Positions 7,420 to 10,183 are shown, counted from the first letter of the stretch. The stretch: 33,121 nucleotides of DNA from Haliangiales bacterium (GCA_038206055.1 JBBRBG010000100.1:1-33121); one strand, 5' to 3'. Notes: generated from the letters alone by a model not told the origin. Translations and numbers: made by a program.

Positions 7420-8352
7420 TCAGAATTCTGGATCGAGCTTGACCGAGCCGAGCTCCTGCTTGAGCCAGCGCTTGAACATCTCCGGCGCGAACCACGTGTA
7501 CGCACAGAACCCGAGCCAGCCATAGCTCAGCACCTTCGAGATCATCTCGTAGCCGAGCTCGTCGGTGACGATGATCAGCATCCGCATCAGCACGAACGTG
7601 CCGATCAACAGGCCGATCTGGCGCCGTTCGTCGCGCATCGAGATCCACATGTTCCATCGCCACCACAGACCGAGCACGAGGCTGCGCTTCGCCTTCACGG
7701 CAGTGAAGAGCTTGAGACCCGCCTCGTCGGTCGCGTCCTGATTGAGCACGAAGCGCGCATGGTCCTCGGCGGTGCGGTCATTGCCCGCGGCGAGCTCGAT
7801 ATAGCCGGCAACGACATGCGCGTCGTGATCCACCGGGTCCGCCTTCAGCGCGAGCGCGATGTGCTCGGCGGCGGCGGCCCGGTTGCCGGCATGCAGCTCG
7901 AGCCGTGCAAGCTCGGTCAACGCGCCGCAGTGCATGGCGTTCTGCTCGAGCGCCTCGGTCAACAGCTCGCGCGCCTTCGCCTTCTGGCCACGCAGCACCT
8001 GGATCGTCGCGCCGAGCACGTATGCCTCCGCGCTGGTGTTGTCGGCCTCGAGCGCGACCAGCACGTGGCTCCACGCATCCTCGAGCTTGCGCTCGGCCAT
8101 CATCACCGCGGCCGCGACGTAGTGGATGTAGTCGTCGCCGCCATCGAGCGAGAGTGCGATCCGCGCCTCGAGGCCGGCCCCGGGGAGCCGGCGGGCGCCG
8201 AGCAGCGAGAACGCGAGGGCAGCGTGCGCCCGGGCGTGATCCGGATCGAGCGCGAGCGCGCGCTGGACCAGCCCGATCGCGGTGCGGTGGTTGCCGAGGC
8301 GGCGCTGGACCTCCGCCTGCTCGAGGAGGACCTGCAGCTGACGGTCCTCCAT
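7420..8352 (-). CDS. TPR-repeat protein with C-terminal transmembrane helices
   Basis: ATG at 8352 (or GTG at 8355) overlaps the stop of the upstream 4-TM gene. TPR-like helical repeats (RRLGNHRTAIGLVQRALALDPDHARAHAALAF... AEAYVLGATIQVLRGQKAKARELLTEALEQN...). The C-terminus LVLGLWWRWNMWI...IGLLIGTFVLMRMLIIVTD...SYGWLGFCAYTWF is hydrophobic. Confidence 0.75.
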   Translation of the reverse strand: MEDRQLQVLLEQAEVQRRLGNHRTAIGLVQRALALDPDHARAHAALAFSLLGARRLPGAGLEARIALSLDGGDDYIHYVAAAVMMAERKLEDAWSHVLVALEADNTSAEAYVLGATIQVLRGQKAKARELLTEALEQNAMHCGALTELARLELHAGNRAAAAEHIALALKADPVDHDAHVVAGYIELAAGNDRTAEDHARFVLNQDATDEAGLKLFTAVKAKRSLVLGLWWRWNMWISMRDERRQIGLLIGTFVLMRMLIIVTDELGYEMISKVLSYGWLGFCAYTWFAPEMFKRWLKQELGSVKLDPEF

Positions 8353-8846
8353 CACATGCCGCTCGCGATGACGACGCCGCCCGCGACGATGATGATCCAG
8401 AGCGGATCATCGGACAGCGCGAGGACGAGGCCGCGCAACCAGTAGCCGGCGCTCAGCACCGGAGCCGCGTTGCGTACGGCGCCGCCGTAGTACTGGTAGA
8501 CGTGGAACGTCCGCTCCTGGACCACGAACAGGTAGTAGGTCATGCCGAGCTTGAACGTGGCGATCCCGAGGATCGCGAACCTCATCGGAACGCCATCGGG
8601 CAGATAGCCCCCGTCGACGAGCGCGATCACCGTGGCGCCGAGCACCGCGGTGCCAACGAACGCCGCGATCACGAGCGCGATCTCCTTCTTCTTCGTCGGG
8701 CTGCCCATCGCGATCGCATTGAACGCGAACCACGGCCACGACAGCCATGATCCGGCGACCATCGCGGCCATCATCGGCACGCCCGGGCGGACGACATACG
8801 CACCGAGGGAGGTCTCGTGAGGCTCGTCGGCGATCTGATAGCTCAT
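8352..8846 (-). CDS. Small integral membrane protein (about 4 TM), unknown function
   Basis: ATG is the complement of cat at 8844-8846 and overlaps the TGA of the AAA gene (ATGA). The 164-aa protein MSYQIADEP... has 4 hydrophobic segments (MMAAMVAGSWLSWPWFAFNAIAM; IALVIAAFVGTAVLGATVIALV; FAILGIATFKLGMTYYLFVV; LWIIIVAGGVVIASG). It lies inside the longer ORF 8352..9518, whose N-terminal part is R-rich and discarded. Confidence 0.7.
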   Translation of the reverse strand: MSYQIADEPHETSLGAYVVRPGVPMMAAMVAGSWLSWPWFAFNAIAMGSPTKKKEIALVIAAFVGTAVLGATVIALVDGGYLPDGVPMRFAILGIATFKLGMTYYLFVVQERTFHVYQYYGGAVRNAAPVLSAGYWLRGLVLALSDDPLWIIIVAGGVVIASGM

Positions 8847-10183
8847 GACTTTCCGTGCTTCTTGAGGAAGTCGAGGACCTCGTCGTACTGACCGCCCTCG
8901 TTCGAGTAGCGCGCGTAGTTGCGCGCGGTGGTCAGCCACTCGATCGTGGTCGGCTTGATCTCCGCGAGGGCGGACATCAGGTGCCCCTGATCGATCGGCA
9001 CCTCGGTGTTCGATGCGAGCGATGCGGCGATCGCGCGATCGGCCGCCGTATCGACAAGGTTCTCGAGGTCCGCGCCGGAGAACCCCGAGGTCTTCCCGGC
9101 GAGCCCGTTGTGATCGATGTCGGGGTGGATGGGACGTCCCTTGAGCAGGATCTGGAGGATCGATGCGCGCGCCGTCTTGTCGGGTGGCGGCACGAACAGC
9201 ACGCGATCGAACCGGCCCGGGCGACGAAACGCCGGATCGATCGCCCACGGCACGTTCGACGCCGCGAGGATCAGCACGCCCGAGTTGTTCTTCACGAAAC
9301 CATCCATCTCGGTGAGGAACTGGCTGACGAGCTTGCTGCTGGTGCCCTCGCGGGTGTGCTGGCGCTTGCCGGCGAGCGCCTCGAGCTCGTCGAAGAACAT
9401 CACGCTCGGCGTGGACGCGCGCGCCTTGTCGAACAGGGCGTGCAGCTTGCGCTCGCTCTCCCCGATGTACATGTCGAGGACGTCCTCGATCGCGACGTTG
9501 AGGAAGGTGGCCTTGCACTGCCCTGCCGTGGCGCGCGCGAGCAGCGTCTTGCCGCAGCCGGGCGGCCCGTACATGAGGATGCCGCCGCCGGCCTTCTTCT
9601 TGAACTTCGCGAACAGCGCCGGTTTCTGGAACGGCAGGATGATCTTCTTCTCGATCGCCGTCTTGATCTCCGCGAGCCCGCCGACGTCGTCGAACGTGAT
9701 CGGCGCCTCCTCCGGGTGGAGCAGGCGATCGAGCTCGCTGCGATCCGTATCGTCGTTCGAGACCACGCGCAGCCGCGGGCCATCACCATGCGCCTCGTGC
9801 ACCGTGATCTTCGACAGGATCCGGTGGCGAAGGTCGCGGTCCTCGTAGGTCGGATTCCCGGCGACCGCCGCGTTGTACGCGACCAGCGCGCCGGTCTGGT
9901 CCTCCTGCGCGAGCAGCACGCGGGCGCGGACCATCTGCGCCTCGGGCTCCGGCCCGTCGGCGAAGCTCAACGCACGCGCCAGGGCGCCCGCGCGGAACAG
10001 CACATTCGCGATGAACGCGCGATCGGTAGCGGCACACCCTTCGGGCGTCAGCCGATCGCAGTGCTCCGCGGCGCGCGCATCGCCCGCACCGTGAAGCCCG
10101 CGGACCACGGCGACCCGCAGCGCGGAGTTATCAGGTGTTGCTGCCAACGCCTCGAGCAGCGACCGCAGAGTTGCTTCGTCCAT
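8843..10183 (-). CDS. AAA+ ATPase (classical clade with SRH) carrying an N-terminal TPR/MIT-like helical domain
   Basis: Walker A ILMYGPPGCGKTLLARA, Walker B SVMFFDELEALAG and second region of homology NVPWAIDPAFRRPGRFDRVLFVPPPD, as in the FtsH/Cdc48/Vps4-type AAA family. The N-terminal ~150 aa are a helical TPR-like region. Confidence 0.9.
   Translation of the reverse strand: MDEATLRSLLEALAATPDNSALRVAVVRGLHGAGDARAAEHCDRLTPEGCAATDRAFIANVLFRAGALARALSFADGPEPEAQMVRARVLLAQEDQTGALVAYNAAVAGNPTYEDRDLRHRILSKITVHEAHGDGPRLRVVSNDDTDRSELDRLLHPEEAPITFDDVGGLAEIKTAIEKKIILPFQKPALFAKFKKKAGGGILMYGPPGCGKTLLARATAGQCKATFLNVAIEDVLDMYIGESERKLHALFDKARASTPSVMFFDELEALAGKRQHTREGTSSKLVSQFLTEMDGFVKNNSGVLILAASNVPWAIDPAFRRPGRFDRVLFVPPPDKTARASILQILLKGRPIHPDIDHNGLAGKTSGFSGADLENLVDTAADRAIAASLASNTEVPIDQGHLMSALAEIKPTTIEWLTTARNYARYSNEGGQYDEVLDFLKKHGKS

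Follow-up and report, generated by a model that had tools for sequence, protein, structure and literature searches.

A conserved, translationally coupled operon in Haliangiales encoding a TPR-AAA ATPase and two membrane proteins, and its possible role as a membrane-tethered protein-pulling machine

We analyzed a 33,121-nucleotide stretch of DNA from Haliangiales bacterium (GCA_038206055.1 JBBRBG010000100.1:1-33121), referred to below as the window, which has a G+C content of about 68%, and in particular three minus-strand genes at positions 7420-10183. These genes encode an AAA ATPase with an N-terminal tetratricopeptide repeat (TPR) domain, an inner-membrane protein with four transmembrane (TM) helices (the 4-TM protein), and a protein in which a TPR array precedes a TM region (the TPR-TM protein). 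As judged from its recurrence in other genomes and in metagenomes, the trio is a conserved, self-contained, translationally coupled unit; it joins an uncharacterised AAA subfamily to a TPR membrane partner of its own, to which this lineage adds a new 4-TM family. The reading that we favor, which we regard as evenly balanced between right and wrong, is that the operon builds an AAA+ machine that is tethered to the inner membrane on its cytoplasmic face and pulls on client proteins.

The three open reading frames (ORFs) had third-position G+C contents (GC3) of 0.89-0.91, typical of the coding frames of the window, and were therefore taken as true coding frames. The ATPase gene (8843-10183, minus strand) encodes 446 amino acids comprising the N-terminal TPR domain, a conserved linker, a single AAA module with its lid, and a C-terminal tail; the 4-TM gene (8352-8846, minus strand) encodes 164 amino acids and belongs to a small unannotated family; and the TPR-TM gene (7420-8352, minus strand) encodes 310 amino acids from an ATG at 8352, or 311 from a GTG at 8355. 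The AAA/4-TM junction reads ...AAG TCA TGA GC, so that the stop codon of the ATPase gene (TGA, 8845-8843) and the start codon of the 4-TM gene (ATG, 8846-8844) form a four-nucleotide ATGA overlap at 8846-8843. The 4-TM/TPR-TM junction reads ...GGC ATG TGA TGG AG with TGATG at 8354-8350, in which the 4-TM stop codon is TGA at 8354-8352 and the candidate TPR-TM start codons are GTG at 8355-8353 and ATG at 8352-8350. The ATG is the likelier start, because TGATGGAG was conserved at this position in homologous loci and the GTG was often absent from them. The start of the 4-TM protein was fixed by the invariant N-terminus M-[ST]-Y-x-I-x-D-E-P that its homologues share.

Both junctions were compared in 73 non-redundant related loci. 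The ATGA overlap between the AAA and 4-TM genes was present in 48, and the spacing was 7 nucleotides or less in 68; at the 4-TM/TPR-TM junction, 59 of the 73 loci had a 4- or 1-nucleotide overlap and 71 had a spacing of 13 nucleotides or less. The retention of the overlaps across these loci indicated that the coupling is a conserved trait rather than a chance one. The original prediction, made from the sequence of the window, had described three chained minus-strand genes, and their coordinates and junctions were all correct on re-reading; it had also proposed translational coupling, which the conserved overlaps bore out, and had taken this to imply a stoichiometric complex. The coupling demonstrates co-expression and says nothing on physical assembly or stoichiometry. 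At one locus (L007), the AAA/4-TM junction carried a tandem repeat (ATGACGATC, three copies), apparently duplicated from the ATGA overlap, which gave a 46-nucleotide spacer instead of the overlap.

The distribution of the genes was analyzed by scanning an alignment of 4-TM homologues against one genome per bacterial species, and the neighbors were identified by tblastn of the three proteins. This gave 38 loci, in 36 of which an AAA gene lay immediately upstream of the 4-TM gene; the TPR-TM gene was directly downstream in all genome loci with enough sequence, and the order and orientation AAA, 4-TM, TPR-TM were constant. Metagenome contigs, scanned with an alignment of eight 4-TM homologues because one of 112 sequences was too diverse for the purpose, contributed 56 more loci, with the AAA gene upstream in 45/45 of those having at least 300 nucleotides of upstream sequence and the TPR-TM gene downstream in 45/45 of those having at least 300 nucleotides of downstream sequence. 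An all-against-all ORF comparison found no other conserved ORF around the trio in distant loci. A conserved fourth gene or functional theme was rejected, the distant neighbors being a Na/H exchanger, a methyltransferase, histidine kinases, a BamB-like propeller, and a SIMPL protein. The co-occurrence, the conserved overlaps, and the lack of any other conserved neighbor together indicated that the trio is not a chance arrangement, and the co-occurrence across genomes on which the original prediction had depended was thus found. Most of the trio loci came from metagenome-assembled genomes (MAGs) of Kofleriaceae/Haliangiales, which are soil myxobacteria; the trio was also present in Holophagae and other Acidobacteriota, in one Polyangiales chromosome, and in one unclassified proteobacterial MAG. 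Flanking genes were common only within subclades, for example between the window and loci L002-L005, and among L012, L015, L017-19, and L029, a pattern consistent with genes that descend vertically while their surroundings slowly rearrange. Phage, plasmid, and IMG/VR collections gave no match to the 4-TM protein, and this absence, together with the synteny within subclades, fits a vertically inherited cellular function.

A hexamer resembling a -10 element, TAGCAT, lies 9 nucleotides upstream of the ATPase start codon (10193-10198, minus strand) and is a candidate promoter. In an alignment of upstream regions from 43 non-redundant Kofleriaceae-type loci, all 43 had a TANNNT hexamer that ended 7-12 nucleotides (mode 9) before the ATPase ATG, a pattern present in 1.9% of 10-nucleotide windows farther upstream; a Shine-Dalgarno-like motif preceded the ATG in just 4/43. 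A generic sigma-70 scanner found no promoter, and terminators were found at chance level only; the promoter assignment was made from conservation across loci alone. This conservation points to a dedicated operon promoter and to an mRNA that would be leaderless or nearly so, judging from how far a -10 element normally lies from the transcription start. On this reading, the 5' end of the operon would coincide with the ATPase gene. The position of the hexamer and the near-absence of Shine-Dalgarno motifs suggest that the ATPase gene is translated without a leader and that translation of the 4-TM and TPR-TM genes follows by coupling.

In the ATPase, Pfam detected AAA (PF00004; E = 4e-40, 137.6 bits against a cutoff of 21.2) and AAA_lid_3 (E = 3e-9) and no other family; Pfam gave no protease domain and no Peptidase_M41 match, and hydropathy analysis gave no TM segment. 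The AAA module and lid (8984-9706, minus strand) contain Walker A GPPGCGKT (9545-9568, minus strand; residues 206-213), a pore loop M-Y-I-G, Walker B FFDELE, the inter-subunit signaling motif EMDGF, a sensor-1 Asn, a second region of homology (...NVPWAIDPAFRRPGRFDR) with Arg fingers, and the motif RRPGRFDR. The original prediction of a classical-clade ATPase without a protease domain therefore held, with every motif reading as reported. In an alignment of 14 sequences from four lineages, these motor motifs were invariant or nearly so from Kofleriaceae to Acidobacteriota, and the identity of the whole ATPase was 72-96% within Kofleriaceae and 53-60% to Acidobacteriota/Polyangiales. By analogy with p97, PAN, and FtsH, for which hexameric threading is established, the motif set would be the full complement of a hexameric, substrate-threading classical AAA. 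The closest solved structures were p97, VAT, and Cdc48, with D2 aligning at E of about 7e-58. The NCBI curated models ranked CDC48 first (212 bits, D2 only), followed by PAN (205), FtsH (205), CdvC (160), and Mpa/ARC (pup_AAA, 156), all scoring far under their own cutoffs; IteA (105 bits) and EccA (33.7 bits) scored lower.

The N-terminal domain (9809-10183, minus strand; residues about 1-125) was analyzed by a profile search with the N-terminal 150 residues, which matched the OGT TPR superhelix (E = 2e-10) and BBS4 (E = 7e-5), and weakly the type VI secretion accessory TPR protein HsiE1/TagJ (E = 0.02). Pfam gave TPR_20 (E = 1.6e-4) and weaker TPR families, and an MIT domain was matched by neither the profile search nor Pfam, so that of the MIT/TPR-like domain first proposed the TPR part stood and the MIT part did not. 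Conserved residues of this domain lie on the groove side. It is followed by a conserved family-specific linker, G-P-R-L-R-V-[VI]-S-N-D-D-T-D. The C-terminal tail (8846-8983, minus strand; ...PTTIEWLTTARNYARYSNEGGQYDEVLDFLKKHGKS) is a signature of the AAA subfamily: the pattern ...TARNYARY[SA]NEGGQYDEVLxFLKKHGK was nearly invariant, the ATPase of the window ends in ...FLKKHGKS, and no similar sequence was found in any PDB chain. A single-sequence AlphaFold model of the ATPase had a predicted local distance difference test score (pLDDT) of 37 and was not used; the folds of the N-terminal domain and of the TPR-TM protein were assigned by profile searches only.

Searches of Pfam, NCBIfam, and PADLOC with the 4-TM protein gave no match, even with the threshold relaxed to E <= 10. 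A profile search of 1.84 billion cluster representatives found 331 clusters matching the family; the best 150 of these were all of 210 amino acids or fewer, with full-length members of about 150-165 amino acids and no fusions, and members were named only 'hypothetical' where the sources named them. An AlphaFold model built with the 112-sequence alignment (pLDDT 93, predicted template modeling score 0.87) showed a compact bundle of four membrane helices at residues 22-47 (kinked), 52-78, 86-119, and 128-154, and hydropathy likewise supported four TM helices. Foldseek found no relative of this fold in PDB below E = 1 and none in BFVD. The 4-TM protein is accordingly described here as a new small membrane-protein family, with a fold that is confidently predicted but unmatched. 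Positive-inside charge counts across the family placed loops 48-54 and 109-127 in the cytoplasm; the cytoplasmic loops carry the motifs WPWFAFNxxAxGSPT[KR] and QxR[TS]FxxYxY[YF]GGxxR, the latter corresponding in the window to the conserved loop 3 (8472-8522, minus strand; Q-x-R-T-F-H-V-Y-x-Y-Y-G-G-x-V-R). Among 112 diverse members, Y3, D7, N43, and Q110 were invariant and G122 nearly so, the polar N43 and Q110 being within TM helices.

The TPR-TM protein consists of a cytoplasmic TPR array, a Trp-rich and probably interfacial helix, a TM hairpin, and a short cytoplasmic tail ending LDPEF. Pfam TPR families matched residues 9-210 (E = 1e-9 to 1e-7), and no family match was found for the C-terminal 95 residues. 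No signal peptide was detected, which places the TPR array in the cytoplasm. In 59 homologues, the membrane region began with a Trp-rich LGxWWR helix with basic flanks, which is probably interfacial, and continued with a hydrophobic helix, a short acidic loop, and a second conserved TM helix, WLgxCaYTWxaP. The C-terminus was L-D-P-[DE]-[FY]-COOH in 42/59, and in 54/59 when looser acidic variants ending in F or Y were counted; the LG-WWR helix, the second TM helix, and the C-terminus were the most conserved parts of the protein. Hydropathy, the 4-TM model, and the TPR matches thus agreed with the description of two membrane-protein partners, one of them with cytoplasmic TPR repeats. The conserved soluble parts of both membrane proteins are predicted to face the cytoplasm, that is, the side of the ATPase, with the exception of the 4-TM N-terminal tail considered below.

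A tblastn search with the ATPase against a plasmid collection, which includes some mislabelled chromosomes, found full-length or tail-bearing homologues with 39-49% identity in Nonomuraea gerenzanensis, eight Streptomyces linear plasmids, Actinomyces oris, and Bacillus sp. N5-665, all carrying the diagnostic C-terminal tail ARNxAxYANEGGxYD. In every such case, the next gene encoded an N-terminal TPR array followed by several C-terminal TM helices, and the two genes overlapped by 4 nucleotides where the record annotated both (Streptomyces and Actinomyces). Most of these ATPases had an N-terminal TPR domain; the Bacillus ATPase did not. The pairs are likewise uncharacterised: the records examined had no annotation for the copies in Nonomuraea and Bacillus, and elsewhere RefSeq called the genes 'ATP-binding protein', 'AAA family ATPase', 'tetratricopeptide repeat protein', or 'hypothetical protein'. 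The pairs consist of two genes with no separate 4-TM gene, and the partner itself carries four TM helices. When the 4-TM protein was compared by hhalign with the TM half of the TPR-4TM partner from Streptomyces, homology was rejected (probability 0.2%), and the membrane partners of the actinobacterial pairs shared with those of the window their architecture, with no detectable sequence homology beyond the TPR repeats. The occurrence of the AAA/TPR-TM pairing in four further genera of two other phyla indicated that the partnership of ATPase and membrane TPR protein is a conserved unit. From the loci compared, the conserved core is a tail-bearing AAA with a TPR membrane protein, found also in Actinomycetota and Bacillota, and in Myxococcota and Acidobacteriota a separate 4-TM gene has come in addition. 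We propose a family defined by an AAA with the C-terminal tail ARN-x-A-x-Y-[AS]-N-E-G-G-x-Y-D, with a gene directly after it that encodes a cytoplasmic TPR array and C-terminal TM helices; the trio of the window has the tail and the downstream TPR-TM gene, with the 4-TM gene intercalated.

In the proposed mechanism, transcription from the operon's own promoter would give a near-leaderless mRNA from which the three genes would be translated in a coupled manner. The 4-TM and TPR-TM proteins would form a membrane platform, on which the TPR-AAA ATPase, as a hexameric ring with a threading pore, would dock via TPR or peptide contacts; candidate contacts are, on the ATPase, its N-terminal TPR domain and C-terminal tail and, on the platform, the acidic-aromatic end of the TPR-TM protein and the conserved loops that the 4-TM protein exposes to the cytoplasm. 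The ring would use ATP hydrolysis to pull clients at the membrane, resulting in the extraction or unfolding of membrane or membrane-associated proteins, or in the disassembly of complexes. Because the module is without a protease, the clients would afterwards be released, refolded, or passed to a separate protease. The unfoldase part of this proposal is supported by the closest relatives of the ATPase being unfoldases, namely p97/VAT D2, PAN, and FtsH. At two Kofleriaceae/Haliangiales loci, L037 (10001-11409) and L031 (10001-11400), the 4-TM and TPR-TM genes occurred as a pair with no AAA gene within 10 kb. In L037, the pair lies at the chromosomal position where L017-19 and L029 have the complete trio, and the loop-3 motif of its 4-TM protein is degenerate; this single case hints at functional dependence and would be compatible with a need for loop 3 only in the presence of the ATPase.

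Several points weigh against this proposal. A physical complex of the three proteins is putative. The membrane pair of L031 and L037 may have some role independent of the ATPase. The acidic N-terminal tail Y-x-I-x-D-E-P, the most conserved stretch of the 4-TM protein, would lie in the periplasm under a simple topology, which the model leaves unexplained. No conserved neighbor of the trio indicates a client, a protease partner, or a regulated pathway. Finally, given that their membrane partners share no detectable sequence homology, the two- and three-gene systems may not work identically.

A more specific form of the tethered-machine proposal, which we offer only tentatively, is that the operon encodes a bacterial counterpart of Cdc48 in endoplasmic reticulum (ER)-associated degradation (ERAD), Msp1, or Pex1/6: a protease-free, p97-D2-like hexamer, docked on a dedicated inner-membrane platform of two proteins with a 4-TM fold not seen before, that would extract mis-inserted or damaged proteins from the bilayer, with a simpler two-gene form across Actinomycetota and Bacillota.

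It seems unlikely that the operon instead encodes an assembly or secretion chaperone like EccA, in which the TPR domain would bind cytoplasmic clients and hand them to a membrane complex, the membrane proteins serving as a docking site or as part of a conduit. EccA has the same TPR-plus-AAA layout and its model gave a weak match, the groove-side residues of the N-terminal TPR domain are conserved, and the marginal similarity to HsiE1/TagJ is in keeping with such a role; however, with 33.7 bits against a cutoff of 467 the AAA module falls outside the CbbX/EccA type, genes for a secretion system or its cargo were not conserved nearby, and the membrane proteins are too small for an obvious channel, the 4-TM model being a compact bundle.

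We consider it quite unlikely that the membrane proteins are themselves the clients. In that case the ATPase would govern the turnover or the oligomeric state of the 4-TM protein, itself a small channel or a transporter-like bundle with buried invariant Asn43 and Gln110, and the TPR-TM protein would act as an adaptor, as LapB presents LpxC to FtsH. The presence of these two residues in TM helices and the strongly conserved N-terminal peptide would agree with such a reading, as would the absence of the 4-TM gene from the actinobacterial pairs, which is expected of a lineage-specific client, and LapB-FtsH is a bacterial precedent for a membrane TPR adaptor working with an AAA (PMC11046580). Clients are, however, rarely encoded with 1:1 translational coupling between motor and adaptor, the conserved 4-TM N-terminus is predicted to be periplasmic and thus beyond a cytoplasmic pore, and there was no transport-related context.

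Of the three roles suggested in the original prediction (envelope quality control, secretion accessory, and defense), defense is the least favored. It would be improbable, in our judgment, that the operon is an anti-phage or conflict module in which the ATPase senses, or is triggered by, infection and the membrane proteins permeabilise the inner membrane to cause abortive infection. Small multi-TM proteins are common abortive-infection effectors, the Streptomyces pairs reside on linear plasmids near TOPRIM and endonuclease genes, and the trio is patchily distributed outside Kofleriaceae. The ATPase also matched PADLOC IetA (E = 4e-30) and the NCBIfam anti-phage model IteA (105 bits), but these matches are generic, the latter being under its cutoff of 510 and well under the CDC48, PAN, and FtsH scores, and no IetS-like protease partner was present. 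The degree of conservation of the ATPase, both in the family and across phyla, is unusual for a defense gene; this, the stable synteny of subclades with housekeeping genes as neighbors, and the absence from the mobile-element collections argue against defense. The trio was single copy at each locus examined, a count per locus and not per genome, with many loci from incomplete MAGs. Co-transcription for regulatory economy only, with products acting independently, is very improbable: operon membership alone is no proof of interaction, and two loci are without the ATPase, but different phyla preserve the gene order and the coupling while conserving no further gene beside them, and the AAA/TPR-TM pairing is independently conserved in Actinomycetota and Bacillota.

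Elsewhere in the window, a cluster for TonB-type uptake on the plus strand converges on the operon with 3 nucleotides between the stop codons, and no terminator-like hairpin was found between the two. It encodes, in order, a TonB-dependent-receptor-like protein (2955-5552), ExbB (5600-6232), ExbD (6234-6662), and TonB (6613-7416), the receptor-like protein being unusual in having an N-terminal TonB_C domain and a CarboxypepD_reg domain. On the other side, a gene at 13532-16072 (plus strand) encodes an 846-amino acid homologue of eukaryotic major vault protein (MVP), with matches to MVP_shoulder (E = 1.8e-26) and Vault_3 (E = 3e-9); against solved MVP chains, phmmer aligned residues 262-731 to MVP 294-736 (E = 7.6e-15). 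This gene is oriented divergently from the AAA operon, and its homologue directly adjoins the ATPase start in the five closest relatives (L001-L005). A link between the vault homologue and the trio was dropped, since it adjoins the trio in these closest five loci only. Between the two, a segment of about 3.3 kb (10278-13625, minus strand) contains four ORFs without a family match, encoding a lipoprotein-like protein of 384 amino acids, a protein of 275 amino acids, a secreted protein of 161 amino acids, and a protein of 256 amino acids with signal and TM segments. The GC3 of the first two was 0.80-0.81, and that of the 161- and 256-amino acid ORFs was 0.88 and 0.86, near the values of the neighbors. 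The block was largely absent from the closest relatives and looks like a lineage-specific insertion. Membership of these four ORFs in the operon was rejected, as they had no homologues beside the trio elsewhere and the trio has its own conserved promoter-like hexamer, which separates it from them. Directly downstream of the vault homologue is a gene for a eukaryotic-type Ser/Thr protein kinase (16126-17283, plus strand), and nearby is one for an Omp85-family outer-membrane protein (18584-19864, minus strand). The window also contains genes for two tandem paralogues of about 1000 amino acids (24045-27155 and 27065-30097, plus strand), both with seven CarboxypepD_reg (transthyretin-like) repeats and a PDZ domain at the C-terminus, and, following these, for a PD40 beta-propeller protein (30147-31091).

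The analysis defines a compact three-gene unit, a new small membrane-protein family, and a wider AAA/TPR-TM pair; the latter occurs in cultivable Streptomyces, Actinomyces, and Bacillus, in which genetics is feasible, as opposed to the uncultured Kofleriaceae. Bacterial membrane-protein quality control is thought to depend mainly on FtsH, which combines anchor, motor, and protease in one chain. If the tethered-machine proposal is right, bacteria would have a second, differently organised solution in which a conserved Cdc48-D2-like motor carries no protease and works from a membrane platform of its own, in a layout nearer to that of the eukaryotic extraction machines. AAA operons of unknown role are not rare, and if the function were defense or a narrow assembly task, the finding would be of routine interest.

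When the trio was compared with known systems, the literature searched contained no description of it, no curated family reached its cutoff, and PADLOC gave generic AAA matches only, in agreement with the original statement that no described counterpart was obvious. The closest AAA relatives were p97, Cdc48, and VAT (E of about 1e-58 per domain), which share with the ATPase of the window an aromatic pore loop, EMDGF, and Arg fingers. Cdc48/p97 is a soluble hexameric unfoldase that is brought to the ER membrane by Ubx2/Hrd1-Der1 in ERAD. However, p97, Cdc48, and VAT have a double-psi-barrel N-domain and two AAA modules, D1 and D2, whereas the ATPase of the window has a TPR domain and one AAA; p97 systems use ubiquitin and the system of the window uses none; and the membrane partners had no match to Ubx, Hrd1, or derlin proteins. 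Membership in the CDC48 family (TIGR01243) was rejected, the 212 bits being against a cutoff of 802.65 and covering model positions 449-685 (D2) only. Membership in FtsH (TIGR01241) was likewise rejected (205 bits against a cutoff of 600, AAA part only): FtsH has N-terminal TM helices and an M41 zinc protease, and the ATPase of the window has neither. PAN and Mpa/ARC were excluded because their matches covered the AAA region only, with cutoffs of at least 500; they have a coiled coil and an OB domain with an HbYX or GQYL C-terminus, in contrast to the TPR N-domain and ...FLKKHGKS of the ATPase. Membership in Vps4/CdvC was rejected (160 bits against a CdvC cutoff of 650), the N-domain matching TPR proteins only, whereas Vps4/CdvC bind ESCRT-III through an N-terminal MIT domain, a three-helix bundle, and have an ESCRT-III partner gene; near the trio, neither ESCRT-III nor PspA genes were conserved.

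EccA of type VII secretion has the same layout of an N-terminal TPR domain and one AAA, but its AAA belongs to a CbbX-like subfamily, and no type VII secretion genes were present with the trio. Grouping with SpoVK/CbbX, which the original prediction had held would count against it, was not observed: the EccA score, set against a cutoff of 466.65, compares with 212 bits for CDC48 D2, and no SpoVK or CbbX model was among the 23 NCBIfam matches at E <= 0.01. IetA/IteA resemble the ATPase in being single-domain classical AAA proteins of similar length; membership in IetAS was nevertheless rejected, as IteA scored below its cutoff and no IetS serine protease gene was adjacent, and PADLOC gave no match to the adjacent membrane-protein genes except a weak TPR match. 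Msp1/ATAD1 and Pex1/Pex6 are classical AAA extractases that likewise have no protease and work on membrane proteins from the cytosolic side. Pex1/6 is a double-ring enzyme tethered by a separate small membrane protein, Pex15 (Pex26), and Msp1 has its own TM anchor; the sequence relation of either to the trio would be limited to the AAA module. Among bacterial systems, FtsH-LapB joins an AAA with a membrane-anchored cytoplasmic TPR adaptor that selects the client LpxC (PMC11046580). A LapB/YciM-type adaptor was rejected, the LapB models giving at most 32 bits (31.6) against cutoffs of 363-474; LapB has an N-terminal TM anchor and a rubredoxin-like zinc domain, and the TPR-TM protein has a C-terminal membrane region and no rubredoxin match. 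YjoB is an AAA chaperone of Bacilli only, with an N-terminal domain that is unlike known proteins and forms a chamber, and no membrane partner was described for it (PMC9565160). The ATPase of the window would be set apart from YjoB by this description, and its C-terminal tail is unmatched in the PDB, which includes YjoB. The architectures of YjoB and of the MoxR/FtsH ternary conflict systems differ from that of the trio (PMC9565160, PMC7159879). By analogy, the trio resembles known systems in which a membrane recruiter works with a classical AAA, as represented by FtsH-LapB, Cdc48 at the ER, Pex1/6-Pex15, and Msp1.

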